Below, one piece after another: positions 1 through 19,002 of a stretch of DNA of 20,000 nt. This DNA comes from Chiloscyllium plagiosum. Its lineage: Eukaryota. The position numbers and the translations under genes are program-made. Position 1 is the first letter of the stretch; each line of letters opens with the position of its first letter. The DNA is taken from NCBI RefSeq assembly GCF_004010195.1, contig NC_057719.1, positions 9,911,791-9,931,790 of the forward strand, written 5' to 3'. The notes beneath the pieces were generated by a model. That model searched no databases. It was not told the DNA's origin and saw only the letters and a program-made list of their open reading frames with translations.

Positions 1-37
1 TGATGTAGGTTTGCTTGCTGAGCTGGAAGGTTCATTT

Positions 38-77
38 CCAGACATTTCGTCACCATACTAGGTAACATCTTCAGTGG
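38..77 (-). ncRNA. Minimal type I hammerhead ribozyme motif (family A, left arm)
   Basis: Minus strand reads CCA-CUGAAGA-U-GUUACC(UAGUAU)GGUGAC-GAAA-UGUC-UGG: both core boxes intact, 6-bp stem II, stem I CCA/UGG, GUC triplet. Confidence 0.85.
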
Positions 78-252
78 GCCTCCAGGTGAAGCACTGCTAC
101 TGATTCCTACTTTCTATTTATATATCCCATCTACCACCCCCTGAGAAGAAGAACAGAAAATGATATCACCACAGGAAATGAAATCACCAACCCAAAGAAA
201 CCCAAAAATACAAACAGAAAGCAGGAATCAGTAGCAGTGCTTTGTCTGAGGC

Positions 253-292
253 CTGCTGAAGATGTTACCTAGCATGGTGACGAAACGTCTGG
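253..292 (+). ncRNA. Minimal type I hammerhead ribozyme motif (family A, right arm)
   Basis: CUGAAGA (256-262), U, GUUACC(UAGCAU)GGUGAC (264-281), GAAA (282-285), CGUC, UGG. Helix III is the palindrome ACGU. The 5' strand of stem I is mutated (CUG instead of CCA). Confidence 0.8.
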
Positions 293-303
293 AAATGAAC
301 CTT

Positions 304-396
304 TTTAGATTAGATTTTAGATTAGATTAGATTACAGTGTGGAAACCTCTGGCGCTGTGAGGCAGCAGTGCTAACCACTGTGCCACCGTGCCGCCA
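304..396 (-). mobile_element. Internally deleted HE1-type SINE
   Basis: The tRNA-like head (minus strand ggcggcacggtggcacagtggttagcactgctgcctcacagcgccagag) is joined directly to the LINE-like tail and (AATCT)n. TSD AACCTT at 298-303 and 397-402. Confidence 0.85.
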
Positions 397-509
397 AACC
401 TTCTAGCTCAGTGAGCAAACCTACATCCAGAACATCAACCTGAGCTACAAATCTTCTCAAAACTGAGGTGTAACAAGTGTTTTGTATGAGTTCAAAAGAT
501 TTCTGTGCT

Positions 510-802
510 CACAGAATCCCTACAGTATGGAAACAGACCATTCAGCCCATTGAGTCCATTCTGACCCGGTGAAGAGCATCCCATCTTGTCCCTGCACTTC
601 CCTGGACACCATGAGTAATTTAGCATGGCCAATCCACCCTGGCCTGTACATCTTTGAACTGTGGGAGGAAACCAGAGCAACCCCACGCAGTCATGGGGAG
701 AATGTGTAAACTCCACACAGACAGTCGCCTGAGGCTGGAATCAAATCCAGGTCCCTGGCGCTGTGAGGTAGCTGTGCTAACCATTGAGCCACAGTACCAT
801 GC
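510..802 (-). mobile_element. HE1-type V-SINE
   Basis: tRNA-derived head, V-domain-like core (tgtgtggagtttacacattctcccc...ggtttcctcccacag) and CR1-like tail. Confidence 0.9.
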
Positions 803-804
803 TT

Positions 805-998
805 TTGTACGCTATGCCTCTATTAGTAAAGCTGAGGATGCTATCGCTTTATTAACTGCTCTCTCCAACAGTCCTGCTGCCTTCAATGATCTGTGTACAT
901 ACACACAGTGGTTTCTCTGCTCCTGCACCCCTTTTCAAATTGTGCCCTCTAATTTATATTGTCTTTTAATGTTGTTTTGACCAAAGTGCATCACCTCA
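805..998 (-). mobile_element. Degenerate CR1-type LINE ORF2 fragment
   Basis: Minus strand translates as EVMHFGQNNIKRQYKLEGTI*KGVQEQR..VYVHRSLK, the post-RT region of CR1 ORF2, with a stop. Confidence 0.75.
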
Positions 999-1396
999 GG
1001 TGAACTAGGAACAAATTAAGCACCTGTGCATTTTTCAACAGGCTAAAGATGCGATACAAATGATGGCAGTTATTCATTTATCAAGACAAAAGGCAGAGTT
1101 GGATAAATTCTGGATAAGCTAGGGTGTGAAAAGTTATTGGTATAGGCGTGGGTATGCAGTAATCAAATTACCAGTGATCTTGGTAAATAGCATGGATTCA
1201 AGGGACCAAATGGATGACTCCTGCTCGGAATTACAAATAGATAAGGACCGCTGTCAATGTTACATTTCACAAAAGTGGCATTCATTCAACAGCTGCACAG
1301 TAATGTTATTATAACCAATTTGAAAGGGAAACAAAGAGGTTTCTCTAGATTTTATTCAGATGGCCTGATGTGGCAGTTTAAAAGCTTCTAATCAAC

Positions 1397-1497
1397 CTTC
1401 TCAGAGATGTTATTACATACATCTAGAGATCAGTGGGCACATGAACCCAACCTTCCTGCTCCAGAGGTAGAGACATTACTACTATGCCACAAGAGCC
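1397..1497 (-). mobile_element. tRNA-derived SINE head fragment
   Basis: Minus strand has an A-box-like tggcatagtag and a B-box-like ggttcatgtgccc with tRNA spacing. No intact cloverleaf. Confidence 0.55.
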
Positions 1498-1590
1498 CAT
1501 GATTTGGAGACACCTGGGTTGGACTGGGGTGTACAAAGTTAAAAAAAATCACACAACACCAGGTTATAGTCCAACGGGTTCATTTGGAAG

Positions 1591-1625
1591 CACTAGCTTT
1601 CAGAGCGCTGCTCCTTCATCAGATG
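1591..1625 (-). ncRNA. Minimal type I hammerhead ribozyme motif (family C, left arm)
   Basis: CAU-CUGAUGA-A-GGAGC(AGC)GCUCU-GAAA-GCUA-GUG. Core intact, helix III palindrome AGCU, CUA triplet, G-U pairs at two positions. Confidence 0.85.
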
Positions 1626-1636
1626 GTTGTGACAAT

Positions 1637-1671
1637 CACCTGACGAAGGAGCGGCGCTCCAAAAGCTAGTG
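1637..1671 (+). ncRNA. Minimal hammerhead motif with a core mutation (family C, right arm)
   Basis: CAC-CUGACGA-A-GGAGC(GGC)GCUCC-AAAA-GCUA-GUG. Stems are perfect, but GAAA is mutated to AAAA. Confidence 0.75.
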
Positions 1672-1797
1672 CTTCCAAATGAACCCATTGGACTATAACC
1701 TGGTGTTGTGTCATTTTTAACAAGAGCCCATGTTGAGGTTAACACTCCATTCACCAGCTTCAGCTGACACTGTGTGGACTACTGTAATTCATATAAA

Positions 1798-2084
1798 GTC
1801 ATAGAATCTCTAGAGTGTAGAAACAGGCCATTTGGCCCAAGTTCACACCAACCCTCCGAAGAGTAACCCACCCAGGCCCATTCCCCCACCCTATCATTCT
1901 ACACCCTATGACTAATGCACCCAACCTACAAATCCCTGGAGGAAACCAGAGCACCCGGAGGAAAACCACGCGGAAACAGGGAGAACGTGTAAACTCCACA
2001 CAGACAGTCACCCGAGGTGGAATTGAACCCAGGTCTCTGGGGCTGTGATGCAGCAATGCTAACCACTGAGCCACCACACTGCCC
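1798..2084 (-). mobile_element. HE1-type V-SINE
   Basis: Head with A/B boxes, conserved core and LINE-like tail ending attctatgac. Confidence 0.9.
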
Positions 2085-2129
2085 AGTGATGCTATGAGGA
2101 CTGGAGCTCTTGGGGTCAAACTTGTAGAC

Positions 2130-2495
2130 AATAGCCTATTTCAAAAGTCCTTAATTGACAATAAATATTTTACTGATGAGGGAGTAAAGAGTTATGGGGA
2201 CAGGCAACAAAAACACCATTAAGGCCACAATCAGGTCAGCCATGACCTTTTTGAATCGTGTGGCAGGTTTAAGTGGATGAATGGTCTACTCTTATCTTCT
2301 AACTCATTTGTTGGGTAGTGTTGTAGAATAGAGCGACCTAGGGGTTCAGGTACATAATTTGTGGAAGTTTGCATCGTAGGTAGACAGGATGGTTAAGATG
2401 ATGTCAGGCACGCTTGCCTTTATTGCTCAGACCTTTGCATATGAGTTGTGATGTCATGTTGAGGTTGTACAGGACATTGGTGAGGCCTCTTCTGG
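2130..2495 (+). mobile_element. Degenerate CR1-type LINE fragments (3' UTR piece and ORF2 piece)
   Basis: 2130-2300 resembles the LINE 3' UTRs elsewhere in the window. 2325-2495 resembles the RDLGVQVH...RLYRTLVRPLL segment seen in the 6142-6759 ORF and its flank. Confidence 0.65.
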
Positions 2496-2954
2496 TGAGT
2501 AAGAAGAATAACACATTGAGTGGCAGTCTCTAGCAGTGTCCTGAAGGGCCAGTGGTTTTGTTAACAATTGTCCAAGATTAATGGCCCCTGTACCAAGTGC
2601 TGAGGTGAACTGCTGAAGGAAGTTGGAAAGGGGACCTCAAAGAGGAGGTCGGTTTGCATACACAAGGGATCCAACACTCGTTTAGGCCACAATCGTCACA
2701 CAAGAGCCTTTGCCAGTTGGCACATTTCTGGGTGGGAGATGGTAATGCTTTATGTGCATGCTGCCCACCTTATTGGACCCATACATGTCAGCTTTCCAGC
2801 CTGCAAAACAGGTATCACCAAACATCAGCATTAAAAAAAACATTTGGGCAATTAAAAAGGGGAAGATGCACTTTGCTAAAACTGGGACTGTGATCCTTCC
2901 TATCAAAGAATATTTTATATATACACATATCTAAAACAGTCACTATTCAGTTCC

Positions 2955-3053
2955 TTGTCGAGAGTGTGATGCTGGAAAAGCACAGCAGGTCAGACAGCAT
3001 CCGAGGAGCGGAAGAATCAATATTTCGGGCAAAAGCCTTTCATCAGAGCTTGG
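2955..3053 (-). mobile_element. Single-arm copy of hammerhead mini-element family B
   Basis: Homologous to 6794-6969 and 10298-10469. Minus strand at about 3016-3046 reads CUGAUGA-A-AGGC(UUUU)GCCC-GAAA-UAUU-GA. Possible 9-bp TSD TTCAGTTCC (2946-2954 and 3054-3062). Confidence 0.8.
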
Positions 3054-3300
3054 TTCAGTTCCAGCCTTAGGTGACTATCTGTGTGGAGTTTACACTTTCT
3101 CCTATAGTTTGCTCCATTTTCCTCCCACCGTCCAAGATGTGCAGGCTTGGTGGATTGGCTGTGCTAAATTGCTCATAGTGTCCAAGGATACCTAAACTAG
3201 GTGGATTAGCCATAGTAAATGCAGAGTAACACAGATAGGTTGTATCTGGTTGGGATGGTCAGTATGGGCTGAATGGCCTGCTTCCACAAATGGGATTCTA
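3054..3300 (+). mobile_element. 5'-truncated HE1-type V-SINE
   Basis: Starts at the B box. Core tgtgtggagtttacactt..., tail gggctgaatggcctgcttcc...gggattcta. Confidence 0.8.
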
Positions 3301-3605
3301 AGTAGCTGAACTGATTGATTCTGCCACAATTAGATATAAAAGCAAAAGTACTTCTACCTGCAATTTTAAACTTATTCAAGTGAGTGGAAGCACAGCTGCC
3401 TTCATATAATCTCTTCAACTATGCACTTTACACATTCTAGAGACCTGGTTTTGAGTGGAAGAGTACTGATCGACACAAAGAAACTGAAAATGAGGTAAGA
3501 TGGAGCAGAGAACAAGGCTAAAGTAAGGAATATTTGCCAAATGTTTGCCCATTCATATCAGCTATGAAAATCTCCGTATTCCCTCTCAAATTGCCTTTCC
3601 ACCTT

Positions 3606-3734
3606 AAAAGAGTCACATCAGATTCAAACTGTGAACTGTGTTTCTTTCCCCATAGATGCTTCCAGATCTGCTGAGTTTTCCCAGCATGTTCTGTTTTTAT
3701 TTCAGATCTCCAGCATCTGCAGGTTTTCAATTTT
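3606..3734 (+). mobile_element. Old repeat family E (related to family B, decayed hammerhead at the 5' end)
   Basis: gatgcttccagatctgctg...ccagca...gatctccagcatctgcag matches the family B arm. It is preceded by a GAGTC...GATTC stem remnant. Confidence 0.6.
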
Positions 3735-3769
3735 AGAGTAATCCAGAGATCCAAGTGAATATATCTGGG

Positions 3770-4098
3770 AACACAAGCTCAAATCTCACCAGGTTGGAAG
3801 AGTGTAATTTAAATTTGATTTGAAAATTGGGATTATGCAGCTATTCTCTACAATGGTGACCATCAGAGTGATCAGTAATTGTGGTGAAAACCCATCTGCT
3901 TCATAAATGTCTGTTTTAGAGAAGGGCATCTGCTACCATTACTGGATGACCTTGTCTACAAGTGATTTTAAAACCGCAGAAATGTGGTTGGCCGTTAACT
4001 ACACACTGCAGCAACCTTGAAAACCATTCAGTCAAAAGCAATTAAATATGGGCAAGAAGCACTGGCGATGCCTGTGTCTTGTGAAAGAATAAAGAAAA
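3770..4098 (+). mobile_element. Degenerate SINE-like element with a LINE-derived tail
   Basis: B-box-like ctcaaatctcacc at the start. The 3' end (gcaattaaatatgggcaag...gaataaagaaaa) resembles the tail of the LINE at 9221-9735. Confidence 0.5.
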
Positions 4099-4184
4099 TG
4101 TTAGATATAACTGAGTAAAAAGTCACCAGTGTGGAATTGACACTGCTGCCCTCTTACTAACTCACCACAACTCTTGTTGCTTTC

Positions 4185-4372
4185 CTTATCCATTCAAGGA
4201 TGTGAATGTTACTGGCTAGATCACCACATATTGCCATACCCTAATTGCCCTTGTGATGATTAGCTACCTTCTTCAGCTGCTGGAGTGCCTGGATTACAGG
4301 ATGAGCCACAGTGTTGTTAAGAAAGGAGTTCCAGATGTTGATTCAGCAACAGTGAATGAATACCAGTTTGTT
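4185..4372 (-). mobile_element. 3' end of a second (non-HER1, L2/Crack-like) LINE family
   Basis: Reverse-complement similarity to 9540-9735. Confidence 0.6.
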
Positions 4373-4375
4373 TCT

Positions 4376-4474
4376 AAATCAGAAACAGAAATTGCTGGAG
4401 AGACTCAGTAGGTCTCACAGAATCGGTAGAGAAAGCACAGCAAATAATTTGAGTCCAGCAACTCTCCTTCAGAA
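4376..4474 (-). mobile_element. Family E repeat with a decayed hammerhead
   Basis: Minus strand reads tt-CTGAAGG-A-GAGTT(GCTG)GACTC-AAAT... followed by the family E body. Confidence 0.6.
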
Positions 4475-6054
4475 TGTTCAGCATCTATTATACAATGACA
4501 CACAGGTCCCATTGCACCTCTCCCTTTCCCAATCTATCACCATTCAGATAATAATCTGTCTTCCTACTTTTTGCCAGCAAAGTGGACAACCTCACATTTA
4601 TCAATGTTTTACGTCATCTGCCATATGTTTATCCACTCACATACTGGAGACCTACAGCCAACCTACATTCAACTATGGTTTTATATTCAAGCACGTGTTC
4701 AGTTCATTTGTTCTCCATTGTGAGCATTGTTGATACAGTTATCTATTACCCTATTTGGAGTTACTTACAGTAGGATCTGCTTGGCCTTCTCCTTAGATAT
4801 CTCTGGCATTTTCCCTAAGGAATATGGATTTAATCTCCATCTCCAGCTAAGCAACGTCTGACCTTTGAGATTTCTTCATTTGACTATGAGTGCCAAAGGA
4901 TTCCAGAATACAAAGTGTCCATACAAAGATCCCTCAAAATACCAAGATACAAAATTGACCCAAGATGATTAATTTCACCTTCAAACGAAAAACAAAATGT
5001 CAACGCAAAGACATAGAAGGACCAGGGACCAGCAGTCTCAAAGAATATTAAGTGCAATCTCGTTTCACTTCCTCAGAAATGTTAGAGAAGAAAACAATGA
5101 AAGTAAACAGTTGTAGAATGATTATTACCCATTTCTATTGTGTCCTTTCCTTAAAAAAAAATTATTAATCTGCTCAGCTTAACCTATATAGATGAGAGGC
5201 TATCACTTGGTAAAGCAACATGCAATTTAATTACATTTCACAGCTCCAAAAAGCAGCGCACGCTATCTTTGAACGTGAAATTGCTAATTTAAAGTACCCT
5301 TACAGCAAATCATGGGTGGCTTAATGTAAGATATAATGAAGTTGCAATGTGTATATCTGCTGAAACAAAACAAATTGCAAAACAAATCCCTATTTTTAAT
5401 TACCCAAAATGGCAGAGAATGTGAAAAGTATTGAACACAGAACCAAATGCTTTGGCATCACTGAAATGCTTTTGAAGGGACATCACTGTTAAAATATAGA
5501 GGATGTTTTTTTAATTATGGAATCTTTGGAATTTTCCAGCCTTGAGATGCTCAGTTTTCAAGCATGGTCAAGACTAAGGTTAGTACATATTGGATTCTCA
5601 GGACATCATGGGAAATGTTGGGATAGGGAATTTGATCTGGATATAACTGAATGTCAAAGCAGACTCTATTGGCTATACCGTCAATTACTACTCCTGTTTC
5701 TTACATTTTTAATTTTCATAAACTTACAGCTATCAACCCATTTTTATACTTCACTCTCTTGTTTGTGGAATCTAATCTATGCCATCAATTTAGAATGTAT
5801 CACGAACAGGTGAAGGGAGCGAAAAATGCAGAACAACAATACACGACTTCTGGCTCTGCAAAGAATGGGCCATTCTCTCCAATCGTGATTAACATTTATT
5901 GTGAACAACTACTTACTGTTAACCATTTTATTGTTAACAAACCTTTTGCAAAAAGGGCAAAATTTGTTTGGGAAAGTGTTCTGAAGTTACATCCCCAGGC
6001 CTTCAACAACTGTCACCAGTTACAGGTACATTGGATAAATAGTCAATAGTAAGA

Positions 6055-7008
6055 GTCAGTCATAGAGTCATAGAGATGTACAGCATGGAAACAGACCCTT
6101 CAGTCCAACATGTCCATGCCGATCAGATATCCCAACCCAATCTAGTCCCACCTGCCAGCACCCAGCACATATCCCTCCAAACCTTTCCTATTCATATACT
6201 CATCCAAATGCCTTTTAAATGTTGCAATTGTACCAGCCTCCACCACTTCCTCTGGCAGCTCATTCCATACCTGTACCACCCTCTGTGTGAAAAAGTTGCC
6301 CCTTAGGTCTCTTTTATATCTTTCCCCTCTCACCCTAAACCTATGCCCTCTAGTTCTGGACTCCCCCATCCCAGGGAAAAGACTTTGTCTATTTACCCTA
6401 TCCATGCTCCTCATAATTTTATAAACCTCTATAAGGTCACCCCTCAGCCTCCAATGCTCCAGGAAAAACAGCCCCAGCCTGTTCAGCCTCTCCCCATAGT
6501 TCAAATCCTCCAACCCTGGCAACATCCTTGTAAATCTTTTCCGAACCCTTTCAAGTTTCTCAACATCTTTCTGATAGGAAGGAGACCAGAACTGCACACA
6601 ATATTCCAACAGTGGCCTAACCAATGTCCTGTATGGCCGCAACATGACCTCCCAACTCATGTACTCAATACTCTGACTAATAAAAGAAAGCATACCAAAC
6701 GCCTTCTTCACTATCCTACCTACCTGTGACTCCACTTTCAAAGACCTGTTAACCTGCACGCCAAGATCTCTTTGTTCAGCAACACTCTATAGGCAAAAGT
6801 GAGGACTGCAGATGCTGGAAACCACAGTTTAGATCATTATGTTGCTGGAAAAGCACAGCAGGTCAGGCAGCATCCGAGGAGCAGGATAATCGACGTTCCG
6901 GGCAAAAGCCCGATTCCTGATGAAGGGCTTTTGCCCAAAATGTCGATTTTCCTGCTCCTCAGATGCAATCAACACTCTATAGGACCTTACCATTAAGTGT
7001 ATAAGTAC
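6055..7008 (-). mobile_element. CR1/HER1-type LINE, 5'-truncated and relatively young, interrupted at 6794-6969
   Basis: Open 205-aa ORF (6142-6759) with LVRPLLEYCVQFWSP, RLRGDLIEVYKI, RTRGH and FFTQRVVQVWNELP motifs. (CTCTATGA)n 3' tail near 6060-6075. Confidence 0.95.
6794..6969. mobile_element. Palindromic hammerhead mini-element (family B)
   Basis: Perfect 14-bp TSD CAACACTCTATAGG (6780-6793 and 6970-6983). Inverted arms at about 6870-6911 and 6925-6966. Plus strand reads CUGAUGA(6917-6923)-A-GGGC(UUUU)GCCC-AAAA-UGUC-GA. Confidence 0.9.
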
Positions 7009-7719
7009 TGCGGAGTCCCTTCTTTTTATGTAAAAATATTCTTAGTTCTCCATTGTAAGTTGACCTCTGACATTTGGACCAACATCCTTAATTTTTCACA
7101 TACTTTGTACTGGTTTTGGCAGGAATAGCCTTTCTCCCCCGCCTCACAATTGCTCCTTTTTGAAATTGTCATCTGAAATAGATCACTGGACAGCTCTCCT
7201 GGCTGAATTCAGCACCATGACCAGCGACCACCAAGGCTTCATCATTATCGGCAGTTCCCAAAACCCGGTTGAATTTAAACTCCTTGGGAATGTAGCTCAG
7301 GCATTAGTTAACTAACAATTTGGTTTTGAAAACTCAGCTTTTACATGCGTATATATTAGTTGGGTCATACAATAATACATGAAATAATTAGATGAAGTCC
7401 TCATGTTGAACATAGCAGTGGCGAAGAAAAGGTTGAACTCTCTGAAAGTTATCTTTATTTTAAATTAATGAGTATGGTGTCGATGCAAAGCGATAGTACA
7501 CACTTTTCACTGTATTTTACATTGAATACGTGTGACAATAAATAATTCAATGAATTCGAATGGATCACCTGAGGAAATTGTCCAGCAATAATCCATTGTA
7601 ACTTCAATACACAGAGCAGAAATAAAGAGGATCTGCATTTATACAGCACCTTTCACAACACTGGTTGCTTGATGCCTACAATATGCATATTAATGCATAA
7701 AACAGGTGAGATGCTGATC

Positions 7720-8680
7720 ATTCAGCCCCTTCTCAAATTGCTCCCCCCTCCCCAGCCCGCGCAGTTCTGGACACATCCACGAGTGGAATAATTCTTTCCA
7801 GGTTCACCTCATCAAGATTATTCACCACTGACTCTTCTAAACTCCAGTGGAATTACAGCCCAGCCAGTCCACCCTATCCTCATAAGGTAACTCCCTTGCT
7901 CCAAGTACTAATCGAGTAAATTTCCTCTGAACTGCATGTGACACATTTACATACTGCTTTAGATAACCAGACCAAAACTACACAGAGTACTCATGATGTG
8001 GTCTCTCTTATATCCTATATAACTGAAGCATTTCACATCCTTTGTTTTCTGTTCAATTCCCCTCATAAGAAAGCAAGGCATCCCATTAGACTGCTTGATT
8101 ACATTCTGTACCTTTATATTAACATTTTCTGATATGGAGCACCTAAATCCCTCTGCACCTCGGTTTTCCACAGTTCATCTCTGTTTTCCCCAGCTGCCAG
8201 ATCTTTGACCACTAACTCAACCTACCTTCTTCATCAAGTACTTTCCTACCTGAGTGGCACAGTGGCTAAGTGGTTAGCACTATTGCCTCAAAGCACCAGG
8301 GACCTGGGTTCGATTCCAGCCTTGGGCAACTGTCTGTGTGGTGTCTGCATGTTCTCCCCGTGCCTGTGTGGGTTTCCTCTGCGTGCTCCAGTTTCCTCCC
8401 ACAGTCACAAAGATGTGCAGGCCATGTCAAGTTGCCCACAGTGTTCAGGTGCATTAGTCAGGGGTAAATGTAGAGTAATAAGGGAGGGGAATGGGTCTGG
8501 GTGGGATACCCCTTGGAGGGTCAGTATGGACTTGTTGGGCAGAAGAGACTGTTTCCGCACTGTAGTGATTCTACCTAGCTTTGTGTCATCTGGAAATCTC
8601 ACTACTGAGCTTTAATGCCCCTCAGCTAATTCATCAATGGGATTTGTTAAAAATCTGTGGCCTCAGCATAGACCTTTGCT
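7720..8680 (-). mobile_element. Old fragmented CR1-type LINE, interrupted by HE1 at 8252-8570
   Basis: Minus strand shows RFPDDTKLG (degenerate FADDTKLG RT motif) near 8575-8600, plus downstream ORF2-like remnants. Confidence 0.7.
8252..8570 (+). mobile_element. HE1-type V-SINE, near full length
   Basis: A box tggctaagtgg, B box ggttcgattcc, core and tail. TSD CTACCT (8246-8251 and 8571-8576). Confidence 0.92.
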
Positions 8681-8764
8681 GCATGATAGGACACACAGGA
8701 CAAACTTGTGGAGAACAAGCTCCACTTAACCTCAATGTAAGAATGACTTGATAATCTGCTATGG

Positions 8765-9166
8765 GATGTTGTCTGAGGAATAATTGGCCTGAACACCAGG
8801 GAGTACTCCATTACTATTCTTTAAAGTTGTACCGCATGGTCTTTATTTTCGCCTGCCTGAGATGGTAGCTGTCTCCGCTGAAAGATGCAGAAAGTATAGA
8901 GGGGATGTCAGAGGCGAGTTCCTTACGCAGAGAGTTGTGAGAGCATGGAATATGTTGCCAGCAGCAGTTGTGGAAGCGAGGTCATTGGGGATATTTAAGA
9001 GACTGCTGGACATGCATATGGTCAGAGAAATTTGAGGGTTCGTACATTAGGTTTACCTTACATGAGGATCAATGGTCGGCACAACATCGTGGGCTGAAGA
9101 GCCTGTTCTGTGCTGTACTGTTCTATGTTACCTTCAACAGTCCAGCACTCCATCAGCACTGCACTC
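8765..9166 (-). mobile_element. Ancient DeuSINE/SacSINE1-like fragment split by a CR1 3' end
   Basis: 8765-8889 (ttggcctgaacaccagggagtactcc...gaaagatgc) continues at 9130-9166 (accttcaacagtccagcactccatcagcactgcact). It resembles my recollection of the shark SacSINE1 consensus and has not been verified by search. Confidence 0.45.
8890..9128 (+). mobile_element. CR1-type LINE 3' end
   Basis: FLTQRVVRAWNMLP motif followed by a 3' UTR ending gcctgttctgtgctgtactgttctatgtt. Confidence 0.85.
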
Positions 9167-9220
9167 ACATGTTAGCAAAACCGCTAACTGAATCCCAACG
9201 CCTACTCTCCATCTACCTTC

Positions 9221-9735
9221 AGGAGTGTGATGGAATTCTCTCCACCTGCCTGGGTGGGTCTAGCTCCAATAACACTCAAGAATCTTGACACCATCCAGAA
9301 CAAAGCAGCCCACACTTGATTGGCACCGCATCCATATGCATCCATTCCCTGAACCACTGGTGCTCAGTAGCAGCAGTGTGTACCATCTACAAGATGGACT
9401 GCAGAAAGTCATCAAAGCTTCTTAGTCAGTGCCTTCCAAACCCCATGACCACTTCCATTGAGAGGAACAAGGGCAGAAATGCTTGGGAACATCAGCACCC
9501 GCCAATTCCCCTCCAAGCCACTCGCCATTTTGACTTGGAAATATACCACTGCTCCATCACTGTTGCTGGGTTAAAGTCCTGGAACATACTCATGAACAAC
9601 ATTGTGTGTGCATACCTACATGGCATAGACTGAAGTGGTTCAAAAAGGCAGCTCACCATCACCTTCTCAAGAACAACTAGGGACGGGCAATAAATACTAG
9701 CTCAGTCAGCGACATCCATATCCCAACAGCGAGTG
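9221..9735 (+). mobile_element. 3' part of the second LINE family (L2/Crack-like)
   Basis: Translates as SVMEFSPPAWVGLAPITLKNLDTIQNKAA / IHSLNHWCSVAAVCTIYKM, a LINE ORF2 C-terminus. Further copies at about 4185, 18400 and 18670. Confidence 0.75.
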
Positions 9736-10297
9736 ATAATAATTAATTCTACAGAATGTTTTAACTTGCAACATATCTACCCTGCCACAAGATGGCAAAC
9801 TTGACCAGCTTGAAACTGAGAAGGTCAATATGATATTTTGTATTGTTGTCAAGTATACTCTCATTTTGAAAACAATATTGAAGCAACAAAGTGGAAAGTG
9901 AACAATCTTGAAGACACCATAATTCTTGTTCTGGCTGAATAGAAGGACAAAATGTCAGACTGAGCCCCAGTGAGATCTGACTCAACATTTTTTTTTCGCT
10001 GCATCGTTCCTTCAGCTGTTTATTTTTCTCCTTTCAATGATGTGGCTATTCAGCAGTGATCCTCAGACAAGGCACCAAAAACTATCAAACAATATGATTG
10101 AACTTGAATAAAGAAATCCTAATTATGGATCACCTTGATAACTGGAGATTGTAACACTGCAACTACTAGCCCATGAAATTAGAGTCACCGAGTCCGACAG
10201 GACAGAGACAGGCCCTTTGGCCCCAACTGGTCCATGCTGACCAAAATGTCCATTCACACTAACCCCACTTCCCTGCACTTGGCCCATATCCTTCTAA

Positions 10298-10469
10298 GAC
10301 GAGAGTGGGGCACTGGAAAAGCACAGCAGGTTAGGCAGCATCCGAGGAGCAGGAAAATCGACGTTTTGGGCAAAAGCCCTTCAGCTCCTCGGATGCTGCC
10401 TGACCTGTTGTGCTTTTCCAGCACCACACTCTCGACTCTGATCTCCAGCATCTGCAGTCCTCACTTTCT
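10298..10469. mobile_element. Palindromic mini-element family B with the centre deleted
   Basis: Perfect 14-bp TSD CCATATCCTTCTAA (10284-10297 and 10470-10483). Inverted arms at about 10300-10350 and 10384-10434. Hammerhead stem II and ACGUC remain, but the CUGAUGA box is truncated. Confidence 0.9.
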
Positions 10470-10510
10470 CCATATCCTTCTAAATCTTTCCTGTCCGTAT
10501 TTTTGTCCAA

Positions 10511-10857
10511 ATGCTTTTTGAATGGTGTTAATGTACCCACCTCAACCACTTCCGCTGGTAGCTCATCCCATTTGCAAACCTGCCCCCCAGGTTCCCTTTT
10601 ATTCTTTCCCCTCTCACCTTAAACTGATGCCCTCTAGTCCTCGATTCCCCAACCCTGGGAAAAAGATTGAGTGATGCTTTTTGAATGGTGTTAATGTACC
10701 CACCTCAACCACTTTCGCTGGTAGCTCATCCCATTTGCAAAGCACCTTCTGTGTAAAAAAAGGCTGCCCCCCAGGTTCCCTTTTATTCTTTCCCCTCTCA
10801 CCTTAAACTGATGCCCTCTAGTCCTCGATTCCCCAACCCTGGGAAAAAGATTGAGTG
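10511..10857 (+). repeat. Tandem duplication (10511-10673, 163 bp; 10674-10857, 184 bp)
   Basis: The copies are identical apart from one substitution (ttccgc/tttcgc) and a net 21-bp deletion in the first copy. Confidence 0.95.
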
Positions 10858-11019
10858 CATTCACTCTATCTGTGCCTCTCAGGATCTAATACACCTGAGA
10901 TCCTCCCTCAGTCTCCTACGCTCTAAAGAAAAAAGTCCCAATGTGTCCAGCCTCTCCCTGTAACTCAGTTCCTTAAGTCCTGACAACGTCCCTGTGAAAT
11001 TCTTCATCACCTTAATGCC

Positions 11020-11510
11020 ATATGACCATCAGAAATGTGAACAGGAGTAGGCCATGTGGTCCCTTCAGCCCGCTTCACTATTCAATAAAACATGGCTGAT
11101 CCAATATTCCTCACATCTGCGTTCCTGCCATAACTCTTGATTGCTCGACAGACCAAGAATCTATCTCAGCCTTTCATATACGCAATGACTTTGATCACAT
11201 GCTTTCTGTGGCAAGGAATTCTAAAGACTTGCAAACCTCAGAGAGAATAAACTCCTCCTCATCTCAGTCTTAATTGACCCCCCTCCTTTTAAGATGGGCC
11301 TATGCCATCTGGTCCCAGACTCTCCCACGAGGGGAAACATTCCCTCGATATCTACCCTGTCAAGCCCGTTACGATTCCTGGATGTTTCAATAAACCTTCT
11401 CTCATCTTCGCAATTCTAATCAGTAGAGTCCAACCTGTTTAACCTTTGCTCATAAGACAATCCCTCCATACCGTGGATCATCCTAGTGAACCTTCTCTGA
11501 ACTACCTCCA
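11020..11510 (-). mobile_element. Old CR1-type LINE 3' fragment
   Basis: Reverse-complement similarity to 14455-15130 and 15716-16150. Confidence 0.8.
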
Positions 11511-11552
11511 ACCTGAGGTCGTCGATTTGTTTGCCGAGCTTATGCATTTTTC

Positions 11553-11594
11553 TGCAGACATTTCATCACCTTACTAGGTGACATCGTCAGTGCA
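11553..11594 (-). ncRNA. Minimal type I hammerhead ribozyme motif (family D, left arm)
   Basis: UGCA-CUGACGA-U-GUCACC(UAGUAA)GGUGAU-GAAA-UGUC-UGCA. Core intact, 4-bp stem I. Confidence 0.85.
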
Positions 11595-11679
11595 TCTTTG
11601 ATAAGATGTTGGTGGTCTGGCCTCCCCAGTATCACGTGTCTCTGTTTGTCGGTACTTCCCGTTCTGTGTCTGCGTGGTT

Positions 11680-11839
11680 TTATATGGTTTTGAGTTCAGT
11701 GGGTTCATCGATTGAGTTTGAGTTGGAATGCCAGGCTTCAAGGAATTGTCTGGTGTGTCTCTGTGTTGCCTGTACTAGGATTGGTTACATTGTCCCAGTT
11801 GAATCCGTGTCCTTTGTTGTCTATGTGGTTGGAAATGAG
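11680..11839 (-). pseudogene. Penelope-type GIY-YIG endonuclease C-terminal remnant (frameshifted)
   Basis: Manual translation gives LISNHIDNKGHGFNWDNVT, a 1-nt insertion, then ILVQATQRHTRQFLEAWHSNSNSIDEPTELKTI. This matches the H...GH.F.W....IL......R.FLEAWHS...SIN pattern of Penelope/Poseidon ORFs. Confidence 0.85.
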
Positions 11840-11871
11840 AATGTACTGGTCCACCAACACGTTATCGAAGA

Positions 11872-11913
11872 TGCACTGATGATGTCACCTAGCGAGGCAA
11901 CAAAACATCTGCA
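11872..11913 (+). ncRNA. Decayed hammerhead motif (family D, right arm)
   Basis: UGCA-CUGAUGA-U-GUCACC(UAGCGA)GGCAAC-AAAA-CAUC-UGCA. GAAA is mutated to AAAA and stem II has mismatches. Confidence 0.7.
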
Positions 11914-12175
11914 GAAAAACACACCAGGTCAACGACTCTATGACCTCATCCACAACCCCAGCTACAAATCCTCTCAAAATCTCCTAAATACTCCAACCTG
12001 TTGACTTTCACTCAATGGGTTTGGTTTTGGGGAAGAAGAATTAATAACAAAGCCTAGTGAAGAAGGCCTTCTTATCTTCTCCAATTGGCTTTTTCACTCA
12101 AGCTGAGTCTGGCTGTGCTCTGACGTCTTTCTGGGTCCACAGAATGATGGAGCGGGGTGGGTGGCCACTCATGGT

Positions 12176-12890
12176 GTCATAGAGTCAAATAGTGTGGAAT
12201 CAGACCCTTCGGTCTAACCAGTCCATGCCAATCACGTTCCCAAAGTAAACTAGTCCCGCCTGCCTGCACCTGGCCCATATCCCTCCAAACCTTTCCTCTT
12301 CAAATGTTCTGTCCAAATATCTTTTAAACATTTCAAGTGTAACTGCACCCACATCCACCACTTCCTCTGAAAGTTCATTCCACACAAGAGCCACTCAGTG
12401 TAAAAAACATTGCCCTTCATGTCCTTTTCAAATCTTCCTCTTCTCACCTGAAAAATACGCCTGCTAGTTTTGAACGCCCCCCACCCTAAGAAAAAGATCC
12501 GTCATTCACCTTATCTATGCTTCCCCATAATTTCATAAGCCTCTATAAGTTACCCCTCAACCTCCCGTATTCCAGCCTTTCCAGTCTACTTTTATATCCC
12601 AAACCTTCCATTCCCCGCAACATCCTGGTAAATCTTTTCAGAACGCTCTTCCTGTTTAATAATATCCTTCCTACAGCAGGGTGACCAGAACTGCACACAG
12701 TACTCCAGAAGAGGCCTCACCAATGTGCTGTACAACCTCAACATGCCATTCCAACTGCTATACTCAAAGGTCCTGAACTTAAAGCTACGAAGGCAAGTGC
12801 ACTAAACACCTTCTTAACCACCCTGCCTACCCACGGCGCAAGTTCAAAGAGTTATGCACCTGAACCCCTAGGTCTGTCTGTTCTACAGGA
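12176..12890 (-). mobile_element. CR1/HER1-type LINE 3' fragment
   Basis: Colinear with 6055-6790 (VWNELSEEVVDVG, KGLEGYGPGAGRRD), frameshifted. Confidence 0.9.
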
Positions 12891-13036
12891 CCTTTACAAA
12901 GTGCCCTACTCATGTGTTCGTTCCCCTTGAGAATTTGGATTCAAGAATGCGGCCAAACACCTTTTTACAAGTTATAACCTGTCAGGCTATGAAATCCTTG
13001 ATCATAACAAGTCTCTGTTTGGGTGTATATTTTAAA

Positions 13037-13350
13037 GGTGGCACAATGGCTCAGTGGTTAGCACTGCTGTCTCACAGCACCAGGAACAAAGGTTCAATTC
13101 CAGACTCAGGCTTCTGTGGGGAGTTTGCACGTTCTCCCTGTGTCTGCGTAGGTTTCCACCAGTTTCCTCCCACAATCCAAAGATGTGCAGGTTAGGTGAA
13201 TTGGCCAAGGTAAATTGCCCATAGTGTTCAGGGATATGTAGGTTAGGATAATAGGGGAGGGGAATGGGTCTGGGTAGGGTACTCTTCGGATGGGTCAGTC
13301 TGGACTTGTTGGGCTGAAGGGTCTGGTTCCACAGTGTAGGACTTCTATGA
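13037..13350 (+). mobile_element. HE1-type V-SINE
   Basis: A box tggctcagtgg, B box ggttcaattcc, core, tail ending ttctatga. Confidence 0.92.
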
Positions 13351-14449
13351 CGTGAAAGAAAACAGACATTTAAAATATCATGCTGTACTGAAGTGCCATT
13401 TGTGAATATGCCCCCGAAAGCTCCCTTAACCAGCAGAGATGGAACCCAGTTCAGGGAAAAGGGCAACTGAGGAGCAAAAATGAACATTTTTACTGTCGCT
13501 TGTTTACCAGGCAAGGGAACTAAACTGAAAATTCCATCACTTTCTTAACACTGCACTTCCAGTAATTATATACGGAAAATGGATCTGCAATTATCCTGCA
13601 CTAATTTGCAATGAGAGTTACGTTACTGTGAATCCCACACGGTGCAGGCTAGTTGGATAATATTCGAAACAGAGCTGTAAGTGCAAGGTCTTTCAGATGC
13701 ATTTTGACTGCGGTTCAATAAAGAATTAACGGCAGGTTACATTATTAATTCACACTGCCCTGAGTCAACTGTTATATAATAGAGGCCACCAAGTTAAATG
13801 TCAGTATGAGGGACAAGGCAAAAATCTGCTACATCATGTCAAGGAGATGCAATTTCATATATATAATCTGCCATGTAGCTGAAGGCAAAAGATCACATTC
13901 AAACTGGAAGATTCTTCGATTGCTTTGGTGGGTCCTTCTAATTACACACACAAATAAAATCCACAGATAATACCCTGCAGCGAGCAGCTGCCTCAGAATG
14001 ATGTGAAGTCATCTCACTAGAATACACATTGCTTGACTGGCTCTGCTCAGTAATATACTGGCTGCCTTTCTTATCAGTGTTTGATCACAGAACGTTGCCT
14101 GTATATGTCACGCAGCAGAGATTATTGCCCGAAAGCCATCGTAAAGCACAGGCTTAAGGGTGACCACAGCACAGTAAAATTCTATTCCTTAACCCTTGTA
14201 ACATCAGCAGAGCTGTCAATATTGCAGGGAGCCAAGGTGAGATATCACCAGCCGCTTGTCGTAAACATGAGGATGCAGCCTAGTACCAGAATCGCAAACG
14301 TAGGTCCAAGTGACAAACAGGAAATAAATCATCGTGGCTACTGGGTATTGGAATTTGCCAGGATGGCAATGACAGTGGAGAGCGTGTGAGAATGAGAAGA
14401 GACTGATGACATTTTGGGTCAATCGCAGAAGGGCTACTCTTTGGGAACA

Positions 14450-15130
14450 TATTCTAGCATTGGAGGCAGTCCAGAGCAGGTTCACTGGGCTGATACCAGG
14501 TATGGAGGGATTGTCTCATGAGGAGATGCTGAGTAGATTGGGCCTGTACCCATTGGAGTGTCTGAAAATGAGAGGTGACTTGGTTGAAACACACAAAGCT
14601 CTTAAAGGATAGTTTCTTCCTCTTGTGAGAGACTTTAGGAAGAGAGGGGCATAATCTCAGAATAATAGATTGTCCATTTAAGACAGAGATGAGGAGGAAT
14701 GTCTTCTCTCAGAGGGGAGTGAATCCAAGGATTCTTTACCACATAGAGCTGTCAAGGCAGGGTCATTATGTATATTCATTATGCATATGAGGTAGACAGA
14801 TTTTTAATCAGTAGGAAAGTTGAGTTGAGGTTGATTAGAGTCAAGAATGTGGTGCTGGACAAGCACAGCAGGTCAAGCAGCATTCAAGGAGCAGGCAAAT
14901 CAACATTTCGGGCATAAACCCTTCATCAGGAATTCCAAAACTTTAATTCTCCTGCTTCTTAGATGCTTCCTGACCTGCTATGCTTTTCCAGCACCACACT
15001 CCCGACTCTGATTTCCAGCATCTGCAGTCCTCACTTTCTCCTCCGTGAGGTTGATCAGATCAGTCATGATCTCATTGAATGGAGGGGCTGACTTGATGGG
15101 CTGAATGGCCTGCTTCTGTTCGTATGTCTC
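14450..15130 (+). mobile_element. Old CR1-type LINE 3' fragment interrupted by family B
   Basis: ALEAVQSRFTGLIPGMEGLSHEEMLSRLGLYPLE..MRGDLVETHK, followed by a 3' UTR. Confidence 0.88.
14836..15045. mobile_element. Palindromic hammerhead mini-element (family B)
   Basis: TSD TGAGGTTGAT (14826-14835 and 15046-15055), extendable to 14 bp with one mismatch. Minus strand at about 14899-14932 reads UUC-CUGAUGA-A-GGGU(UUAU)GCCC-GAAA-UGUU-GA. The right arm lacks the core. Confidence 0.9.
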
Positions 15131-15715: not shown

Positions 15716-16875
15716 CAGGATGGGTTGTCTTCTGAGGATAGGTTCTGTGGGTAGGGCGTGTCCTTTTGGAACATTGAAAGACGAGAGGAGTCCTCATTGA
15801 AACATACAAGATATTCGGGGATTTGAAAGGGTAGATATGGAGAGGTTGTTTCCCTTGTGGGAGAGTCTAGGAGCATAGGCATATTACAAGAATAAGAGGT
15901 GCCCACTTAAGACAGAGATAAGAGGAATTTCTTCTCTCAAAGAGCAGACAATCTGTGGAATTCTTTACCACAGTGAGCCATAGAAGCTAGGACATTTAGT
16001 ATTTTCAAGGCTGAGACAGACAGAACTTTATTCAGTAAGGGAATCAAAGGTTATGGGGAAAAGAAAAGTGGAGCTGAGGATTATCACATTGGCCATTTCT
16101 CATTGAATGGGGGACTAGGCTCGATGGACTGAATGGTCTACTTCTGCTCCGACACCCGATGCTTAATTTCAGAGAATGTGGAATGCCTGATGACAGGGAG
16201 CCATTAAAGAAGGAAACCTGATGAACACGTAGGACGAATGCATATTTTGGAGGTATAGCTGATTTCCCCACCTTTTCCATCTTGGGACCTGTTAAATGGC
16301 CATGGGACAATCGCTACTCCATCTGTCTCAAGCAGTTCCACCTGTAATAGAAATCTAGTGGCACAGTAGGTAACGTTTCTGTCTCTGAGCCAGGAGCTCG
16401 GTTTCAAATCCCACTCCAAGACTTGATGACCAAAGAAGGTGGGTCATCATAAGGAACCGGAATAGGCCCCCTGGACTTCCTCCACCATTCAATAGGATCA
16501 TGGCTGATCTTACACTCCTCAGATCTACTTTCCTGCCCTTTCCCCAGAACCATCGATTCCCCATGACATGACATAAGAGCCTGAGTATCACCCAAAGGTA
16601 AATCCTTCCATTACACAGAGTGGTAAAGAATTCCACAGATTGTCTGCTCTTTGAGAGAAGAAATTCCTCTTATCTCTGCCTTAAGTGGGCACCTCTTATT
16701 CTTGTAATATGCCTATGCTCCTAGACTCTCCCACAAGAGAAACAACCTCTCCATATCTACCCTTTCAAATCCCCGAATATCTTGTATGTTTCAATGAGGA
16801 CTCCTCTCGTCTTTCAATGTTCCAAAAGGACACGCCCTACCCACAGTACCTATCCTCAGAAGACAACCCATCCTG
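15716..16875. repeat. Inverted repeat with 256-bp arms (15716-15971 and 16620-16875) within two facing CR1-type LINE 3' relics (15716-16150 on +, 16450-16875 on -)
   Basis: I count 3 mismatches in 256 bp by eye, with a 648-bp spacer. The ORF track gives near-identical peptides on opposite strands. Confidence 0.95.
16355..16425 (+). mobile_element. tRNA-derived SINE head fragment
   Basis: A-box-like tggcacagtagg and B-box-like gtttcaaatccc. Confidence 0.5.
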
Positions 16876-17064: not shown

Positions 17065-17315
17065 TCCTGAGATGAGGAGGAATTTCTTCTCTCAAAGGAC
17101 TATGAGTCTTTGGAAGTCCTTGTCACAGAGAGCTGTGGGGGAAGCATCCTTGTGAATACTTAAGGCTGAGATAGATGATTAGTCAGGGAATCGGGGATTA
17201 TGGGGAAAGGGCAGGAACATGGATGGGAGGAGTGTTGGATCAGCCATGGTCCGATTGAATGTTGGAGCAGGCTTGGAGGGCTGAATGGATTACTCCTGTT
17301 CCTATTTCTTACTGT
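17065..17315 (+). mobile_element. Old CR1-type LINE 3' end
   Basis: gagatgaggaggaatttcttctctca...gggctgaatggattactcctgttcct, homologous to the other LINE tails. Confidence 0.8.
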
Positions 17316-18399: not shown

Positions 18400-19002
18400 G
18401 ATTTTTTATTCATCCTTGCAATGTGGGCATCAATTCATTGTCCATTCCCAATTGTCCTCATGAAGGTGGTGGTGAGCTGCCTTCTTGAACTGCTGCAGTC
18501 CATGTGCTGCAGGGAGACCCACAACATTGTTAGGGAAAGAGTTCCAGGATTTTGAGGGTTTGGAGAGAAACATGCAGGTGGGTGGTGTTCCTATGTATCT
18601 GCTGATCTTGTCCTTCAAGATGGGAGAGCTTGGAGGTCAATAGTGTGTTGTTATTACTGGCATTATTAGCACTGTACCCACATCCATAAAGATCTATTCC
18701 CTCCACCAGTAATACTCAGTAGCAGCAGTGCACCAACTATAAGATGCACTGCAGAAATTCACCAAGGATCCTTACTCAACACCTTCTGTACCTACAGCCA
18801 TTGAGAGGGAAAAGGGCAGCAAATACGTAGGAGCACCACTACCTGCAAGTTGCCCTTCCAAGTCACTCACTATCCTGACTTGGAAATATATCACTGTTCC
18901 TTCAGGGTCGCTCGGTTAAAATCCTGGAATTCCCTCCCTAATGGCATTGTGGGTCAACCCACAGCAGATGAACTGCAATGGTTCAAGAGGCAGCTCATCA
19001 CC
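18400..19002. mobile_element. Two fragments of the second LINE family in opposite orientation (about 18400-18625 on -, 18670-19002 on +)
   Basis: KSWNSFPNNVVG and KSWNSLPNGIVG translations, homologous to 9330-9735. Confidence 0.75.

Follow-up and report, generated by a model that had tools for sequence, protein, structure and literature searches.

Hammerhead-bearing insertions of Chiloscyllium plagiosum and their probable origin by Penelope-like element retrotransposition

The DNA considered here is a stretch of 20,000 nucleotides from Chiloscyllium plagiosum (assembly GCF_004010195.1, contig NC_057719.1, positions 9,911,791 to 9,931,790 of the forward strand), called the window in what follows. 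It holds seven short insertions of four families, A to D, which carry a minimal hammerhead ribozyme motif or the remains of one. These insertions are very probably products of retrotransposition by Penelope-like elements (PLEs), families A and D representing the 3′ ends of autonomous elements and families B and C non-autonomous passengers copied in trans. A PLE reading had been put forward in an earlier note on this stretch, made from the sequence alone, and it is supported by the present analysis; elements of this kind have been published before (Cervera and de la Pena 2014; Li, Clavereau and Pollet 2026), and the known picture of PLE hammerheads is unchanged.

Hammerhead motifs and insertions in the window

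The window was scanned with a structural descriptor (CTGANGA, one unpaired nucleotide, a stem II of at least 4 bp, GAAA, NN, UH, and a helix I with at least two of three pairs), complemented by a listing of every CTGANGA in the window with its context. Five intact minimal hammerheads were found, at +256, −74, −1622, −11590 and −14929. The descriptor gave no match in 500 first-order Markov simulations of the window, and a chance origin of the motifs was rejected on this comparison; a looser fixed pattern gave four matches against 0.71 expected. Four further copies, at +1640, +6917, −3046 and +11876, have disabling changes, and the seventh insertion (10298–10471) has lost part of the CUGAUGA box. 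The earlier note had described the same hammerhead core in six insertions and a part of it in a seventh, which the descriptor and the CTGANGA listing bear out, and the stem I and stem II pairs that it gave for the four families are correct. Of the two motif searches it proposed, the descriptor search recovered the five sites; the other, an Infernal search with the Rfam Hammerhead_1 model, finds nothing in the window and would have missed the motif. None of the Rfam hammerhead models matched in the window, either at the gathering score or at E values up to 10; the motif is without helix III, and this outcome is read as a limit of the models for such motifs rather than as evidence against the motif.

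The element boundaries were set by flanking duplications read from the sequence. The seven insertions lie where they had been placed before, the coordinates agreeing within 0–12 nt, and six of the seven are inverted repeats as judged by inverted-repeat pairing, the exception being the single-arm copy that had already been singled out. The hammerheads are oriented outward from the palindrome centre.

The family A insertion (1 to ~466) is composed of an inverted 5′-truncated PLE copy (1–123) and a direct 5′-truncated copy (124 to ~466). Its arms correspond to the inverted-repeat pairs I5, I9 and I10, and the left arm ends at base 1–2 of the window; the right end is uncertain, since no clear flanking duplication was found. 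The segment 304–396 is an unrelated later insertion. The hammerhead of the inverted copy (36–78, reverse strand) is intact, with helix I CCA/UGG and stem II GUUACC/GGUGAC, and that of the direct copy (252–294, forward strand) has both core boxes intact, a wobble-paired helix I and ACGU at positions 15.1–16.1. A one-sided tail (428–466, forward strand) is present on the right arm only, being absent from the left, and resembles the 3′ end that follows the hammerhead in a related genomic copy, L092. The family D insertion (11516–11990, pair I2) has the same composition, with a direct 5′-truncated PLE copy at 11516–11851 on the reverse strand and an inverted copy at 11851–11990 on the forward strand, and is flanked by a 10-nt duplication (11506–11515 and 11991–12000). 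One of its hammerheads (11552–11594, reverse strand) is intact, with helix I UGCA/UGCA and stem II GUCACC/GGUGAU; that of the inverted copy (11872–11914, forward strand) is decayed in its 3′ half.

The family C insertion (1502–1721) is a palindrome with 87-nt arms that are 91% complementary (pair I1), and its 11-nt duplication (1491–1501 and 1722–1732) was both read by eye and found by script. A 36-nt tail (1502–1537, reverse strand) is confined to arm 1 and conserved in 28/28 aligned copies. The arm 1 hammerhead (1590–1626, reverse strand) is intact, with helix I CAU/GUG, stem II GGAGC/GCUCU and AGCU at 15.1–16.1; the arm 2 hammerhead (1636–1672, forward strand) carries a G12 to A change at a CpG site, where the arm 2 of 28 genome copies reads TTTT in 8 and TTTC in 18.

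Family B is represented by one single-arm and three palindromic copies. The single-arm copy (2956–3053, reverse strand) is flanked by a 9-nt duplication (2947–2955 and 3054–3062), and its hammerhead (3015–3050, reverse strand) has a G10.1 to A change. The copy at 6794–6969 (pair I8) has a 14-nt duplication (6780–6793 and 6970–6983), a tail on the left arm, a short right arm and a hammerhead with a G12 to A change (6913–6948, forward strand). In the copy at 10298–10471 (pair I6), the duplication is 12 nt long (10286–10297 and 10472–10483) and the tail occupies 10437–10471. The copy at 14840–15046 (pair I3) has a 13-nt duplication with one mismatch (14827–14839 and 15047–15059), a tail at 15007–15046 and an intact hammerhead (14898–14933, reverse strand) with stem II GGGU/GCCC.

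Autonomous and non-coding families in the genome

The whole assembly (3.56 Gb, 101,977 contigs) was searched with these families. The first-look candidate counts given here are lower bounds and not copy numbers, and the sets of copies compared are top-scoring matches rather than random samples. At least 2,137 candidates were found with the family D query and at least 30,898 with a PLE endonuclease peptide. The genomic copies of family D share a sharp 3′ end, upstream of which homology drops stepwise, i.e. they form a 5′-truncation ladder, and the frames upstream of D-type copies encode peptides resembling reverse transcriptase and endonuclease. A Pfam search with the short decayed peptides of D-type copies gave no match, and a longer open frame was needed. 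Such a frame, of 503 codons and itself interrupted upstream, was found in L092; it matches RVT_1 with 29.7 bits (cut-off 29.6) and, weakly, GIY-YIG with 17.2 bits (E 0.0065), below the cut-off of 22.6. By tblastn, the remains of the C-terminal end of the PLE endonuclease domain were located at 11683–11851 of the window on the reverse strand, within family D (residues 403–458 of the open reading frame, E 4e-10, with a frame break), and residues 458–503 of the L092 frame matched 129–269 on the forward strand, within family A. Among 19 fetched PLE 3′ ends, 17 carry an A-type arm and 11 an intact hammerhead, ~330 nt after the endonuclease query.

For A and D, the connection with PLEs is direct: they are 5′-truncated 3′ ends of autonomous PLEs with a frame for reverse transcriptase and GIY-YIG endonuclease. 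Both families share one layout: the end of this frame, the hammerhead, a body of ~60 nt and an optional tail of 35–40 nt. L092 is an A-type PLE on the reverse strand; its 503-codon frame extends into the hammerhead as far as loop II, where it ends in a stop codon, and the first box of this hammerhead has the sequence TTGATGA.

Families B and C have a similar layout (hammerhead, body of ~55–65 nt, optional tail of 35–40 nt) and no frame. At least 5,748 candidates were found with the family C palindrome, at least 2,415 with a single C arm and at least 1,358 with family B. Similarity to the PLE open reading frame was seen in 2/36 loci taken with 1.5-kb flanks, neither match adjoining the B or C element, and in 0/5 stretches of 1.2 kb upstream of C monomers. 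Duplications of at least 8 nt flank 23/28 C copies (median 12.5) and 19/31 B copies, against 14/544 and 7/601, respectively, in mismatched-flank controls; the script, which counted from 8 nt and allowed one mismatch from 9 nt, missed two window copies that had been read by eye. The duplications are 7–19 nt long. In all four families, the extra 35–40 nt are found at the outer end of one arm only.

The palindrome is one of three forms of insertion (monomer, inverted dimer and head-to-tail dimer) and not the unit itself. Only 4/39 non-self top matches to a single C arm have an inverted partner, so that C monomers are common. Head-to-tail junctions, in which a tail is followed by a hammerhead in the same orientation, were counted 14 times in C and 29 times in B and not at all in reversed-pattern controls, and at the locus L113 two 122-nt units are joined cleanly head to tail. 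C monomers often extend upstream of the hammerhead: a leader of at least 70 nt is common to 10/16, and the homologous leader is up to 524 nt long and varies in its 5′ end, forming again a linear 5′-truncation ladder; no convincing frame was found in this leader of up to 524 nt. With regard to the leader itself, the C copies L114–L129 and L130–L134 conserve a TATAAA ~50 nt before C3, a position that would place a start site near the 5′ end of the short copies, and the longest copies have a CA-rich stretch further upstream. It was also observed that many B and C monomers lie 10–50 nt downstream of the tail of another copy, with unrelated DNA in between, a spacing that fits the reported habit of PLEs of inserting beside earlier copies.

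Accordingly, B and C bear the insertion signature described for PLEs (PMC8557442, PMC11167929), with copies truncated at the 5′ end, partial copies in inverted or tandem arrangement, a tail at one end and duplications of variable length. The counts, the absent frame and these hallmarks support the claim of the earlier note that B and C, without a coding remnant, are abundant, non-autonomous and mobilised by PLEs. This reading is refined in that the palindrome is one form of three, that family C also has the longer copies with a non-coding leader, and that many B copies are without an intact core. An origin from miniature inverted-repeat transposable elements (MITEs), foldback elements or DDE transposons was rejected, as the tail is one-sided, the duplications range from 7 to 19 nt, and monomers and tandem dimers occur.

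Covariation and decay of the ribozyme

In the fetched genomic loci outside the window, 65 intact hammerhead instances were found, 56 of them distinct. The search behind these 56 demanded pairing in stem II and not in helix I. Helix I was paired in 145/168 cells, compared with 90.2 ± 6.1 (maximum 109) when the partners were shuffled, and three to six standard pair types were seen at each of the stem II positions 10.2 to 10.4. The pair types differ among families in both helices. Since some 4–6 families lie behind the 56 rows, the independent covariation events are few; with this reservation, the covariation of the stems among families that had been claimed is borne out by the shuffled-partner comparison. 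Pairs were counted by script on the parsed motifs, since MAFFT, applied to 39 hammerhead segments, had misplaced the GAAA box of family C by one column.

The motifs have the traits of the minimal hammerhead: the core boxes CUGANGA...GAAA...UH in type I order, G at 10.1 and a short helix I. One unpaired nucleotide stands between A9 and 10.1, U in A and D and A in B and C, and although it was demanded by the descriptors, the bulged register was the paired one in 11/11 PLE 3′ ends for which both registers were tried. Positions 15.1–16.1 read ACGT in 10/11 B and 9/11 A instances and AGCT in 28/29 C instances, giving one or the other in 47/51 instances of the three families together; family D has ATGT or ACAT, as CpG decay of ACGT would give. 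As this tetranucleotide is palindromic and there is no stable helix III, helix III would form only between two copies. Two more intact minimal hammerheads, at L006:90–131 and L007:3037–3077 (both on the forward strand), have the stems GAGU.../...GCUU and AGGUC/GACCU, and from these different stems it follows that the genome holds families beyond the four of the window.

In family C, both boxes are valid in arm 1 of 22/28 copies, in arm 2 of 17/28 and in both arms of 13/28, and divergence amounts to 16.7% at CpG sites and 5.0% at other sites. Folded as RNA, the family C palindrome is predicted to form a hairpin of ~80 bp (−152 kcal/mol) in which the ribozyme is buried, the whole hammerhead being paired to its own antisense.

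Mechanism, alternative explanations and known relatives

The following course of events would account for the insertions. The template RNA would start a few nucleotides upstream of the hammerhead, and the PLE protein would bind the region downstream of it and make a staggered cut in the target, as has been observed in vitro for another PLE; the staggered cut would produce the 7–19-nt duplications. Reverse transcription could begin at either of two internal start sites, giving ends with or without a tail. Priming by one cut strand would yield a monomer; if both strands primed, or if the cDNA snapped back, the 5′ ends would meet in a head-to-head palindrome with outward hammerheads and a tail on one arm only, and priming in the downstream unit of a tandem template would lead to a head-to-tail dimer. 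Most copies would be dead on arrival and would decay, fastest at CpG sites. Since two copies are needed to form helix III, by way of the palindromic ACGU or AGCU, the hammerhead, to judge by its sequence, could be active in tandem transcripts and locked in the ~80-bp hairpin in transcripts of palindromes.

The making of the palindrome is reflected in subfamily markers of family C. Among 28 copies, the loop-II marker GTC is found in both arms of 10, in arm 1 alone of 2, in arm 2 alone of none and in neither arm of 16 (Fisher p 5e-6); likewise, a 2-nt indel is found in both arms of 7, in one arm of 6 and in neither of 15 (p 0.011). The length of the junction at the palindrome centre varies between copies. 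A palindrome copied as a whole would need parallel mutations in the two arms, which makes a one-arm template the simpler assumption, and it was concluded from the mirrored markers that both arms are probably synthesised anew at each insertion from one-arm templates. Together with the one-sided tails, the markers lend genomic support to the two-strand priming from two start sites that was described for a PLE enzyme in vitro.

The same markers bear on the least probable of the alternatives, namely that the palindromes are themselves the heritable units, whether as DNA elements of foldback or MITE-like type or as hairpin retroposons duplicated in their entirety. In its favour are the long, nearly perfect arms; also, among the matches scored with the C palindrome as query, 40/40 were full-length with the same asymmetry, a result that is partly a selection effect of the palindromic query. 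Besides the mirrored markers, this alternative has against it the variable duplications, the one-sided tail, owing to which the two ends do not match as inverted repeats, the monomers and tandem dimers of the same arm, and the A and D arms that run into a reverse transcriptase frame. Mobilisation of B and C by a long interspersed nuclear element (LINE) of the CR1 or L2 type, with the hammerhead as an inherited relic, is likewise highly improbable. Variable duplications and 5′ truncation are features of LINEs as well, and a PLE with a B or C 3′ end is missing from the PLE 3′ ends discussed below; yet the B and C copies end neither in poly(A) nor in a short repeat, and inverted and tandem dimers and a one-sided tail of 35–40 nt are reported as PLE-specific (PMC8557442, PMC11167929). 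The distance from hammerhead to end (~55–100 nt) is, moreover, of the same order as the ~85–92 nt from the cut site to the reverse transcription start in the lizard PLE protein PAc.

A further alternative concerns the template step of the PLE model, which it would alter rather than replace: B and C could be miniature retrozymes, whose tandem transcripts would be cut as dimers and whose unit of ~122–135 nt would be circularised, the circle being copied by the PLE reverse transcriptase. This is unlikely on balance. The head-to-tail junctions, the L113 dimer and the palindromic tetranucleotide at 15.1–16.1 are what it would lead one to expect, the end of the C tail is similar to the few nucleotides that precede the C hammerhead, and a dependence of animal retrozymes on PLEs has been proposed (PMC7229834; bioRxiv 10.64898/2026.07.22.740005). 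However, the copies sampled are for the most part monomers at dispersed sites or inverted dimers and not arrays, the core and both sides of the cleavage site are kept in one piece, and the ladders of family C are linear and reach far upstream. The motif is also of the minimal type, without an Rfam match, whereas that of the described retrozymes is the canonical type I, and in vitro PAc works with RNA that has not been cleaved (PMC11167929). A bolder version, in which the hammerhead-headed units of ~122–135 nt are the smallest retrozyme-like elements known, combining dimeric cleavage from tandems with two-strand priming by PLE enzymes, must be considered distinctly doubtful. If it were true, thousands of genomic palindromes would document two-sided target-primed reverse transcription directly and in vivo, and perfect hairpins could feed small-RNA pathways.

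Several observations count against retrotransposition of B and C by PLEs, or against parts of the model given above. No B- or C-type end was found on the 31 PLE 3′ ends examined, a small sample made up of the closest relatives of the D-type endonuclease and hence biased, so that the negative is weak; a 3′ region common to B or C and an autonomous partner was accordingly not seen among them, and the 3′ regions of B and C cannot be aligned with those of A and D. In family C, the essential core diverges by 1.8% and other non-CpG sites by 5.3%, a marginal conservation (permutation p 0.047). In family B, both boxes are intact in just 6/33 copies, and in 13 the first box has the variant form GCUGA, the sample having been drawn with a query that itself carries a first-box deletion; this scarcity of intact copies suggests, as far as sequence can, that cleavage is not needed for the spread of family B, in line with the behaviour of PAc in vitro. 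The mirrored markers could instead come from conversion between the arms, and double priming and snap-back synthesis are indistinguishable from these data.

The present families can be compared with those described before. Minimal hammerheads in the pseudo-long terminal repeats (pseudo-LTRs) of metazoan PLEs were reported by Cervera and de la Pena (2014; PMC4209133), with thousands of dispersed motifs and with motif pairs on opposite strands 100–700 bp apart. The motifs of the window agree with these in the core, the unpaired nucleotide at 9/10.1, the G at 10.1, the short helix I, the missing helix III and the palindromic 15.1–16.1, as well as in the many covarying families per genome and the position of most motifs away from full PLEs. 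They differ in coming from another genome and in the stem II of B and C, which has 4–5 bp and not the 7–8 bp typical of that set. Cleavage of minimal hammerheads as dimers has been attributed to Lunse, Weinberg and Breaker (2017, as cited in PMC6765202).

As to the architecture of PLEs, it was reported that their insertions have pseudo-LTRs, 5′ truncation, partial tandems and an adjacent inverted 5′-truncated copy, and a tail of 30–40 bp that is often confined to one end (Craig et al. 2021; PMC8557442). The lizard protein PAc was found to cleave and extend both target strands, the tail was identified as the stretch between two reverse transcription start sites, and hammerhead mutants still inserted (Frangieh et al. 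2024; PMC11167929). The inverted head-to-head form and the one-arm tail of 35–40 nt in A to D and the head-to-tail form in B and C correspond to this architecture, from which B and C depart in that the whole insertion measures ~100–220 bp and is without coding sequence.

Animal non-LTR retrozymes (Cervera and de la Pena 2020; PMC7229834) have been proposed to be non-autonomous derivatives of PLEs in a preprint that sampled one cartilaginous fish (Li, Clavereau and Pollet 2026; bioRxiv 10.64898/2026.07.22.740005). Like B and C, they are non-coding and hammerhead-bearing, co-exist with PLEs and are partly tandem. Retrozymes consist of tandem arrays of 170–400-nt units with canonical type I hammerheads, and their circular RNAs have been demonstrated, whereas the units described here are of ~122–135 nt, have minimal hammerheads, are mostly dispersed or inverted and are known from genomic sequence alone. 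The SINE-like (short interspersed nuclear element-like) Sm-alpha and Sj-alpha of schistosomes, with a hammerhead near the 5′ end, resemble B and C in being short, abundant, non-autonomous retroposons; they differ in having canonical hammerheads behind a promoter, and palindromic or tailed forms are not mentioned in the part of PMC6765202 at hand. The literature search found no paper on the four families of the window, the repeat catalogues Repbase and Dfam lying outside that search.

For annotation, it is advisable to mask these very abundant short palindromes as repeats derived from PLEs; they should not be taken for ribozyme genes, MITEs or microRNA precursors. The B hairpin at 10315–10419 of the window gives sub-threshold Rfam microRNA matches on both strands (mir-671, MIR528 and others), among which mir-1791 reaches 40.5 bits (E 1.7e-5, gathering score 75), with a similarity that extends beyond shape to the sequence. 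The mir-1791 family might go back to a hairpin repeat of this sort, or repeats of this sort may be annotated as microRNAs by mistake; a literature search on miR-1791 found nothing relevant.

Other repeats were also noted in the window. Three copies of a tRNA-like SINE segment of the GGCGCTGTGAGGCAGC...GCTAACCACTG type lie at approximately 347–393, 753–798 and 2035–2080, one of them within the later insertion by which the right arm of family A is interrupted. Further inverted pairs, 360–1,100 bp apart, are found at ~15717–15815 (forward) and 16775–16874 (reverse), at 16620–16669 and 17077–17126, and at 18483–18553 and 18918–18988. A hammerhead core with a paired stem II was found in none of these pairs, and they are probably other transposable elements.

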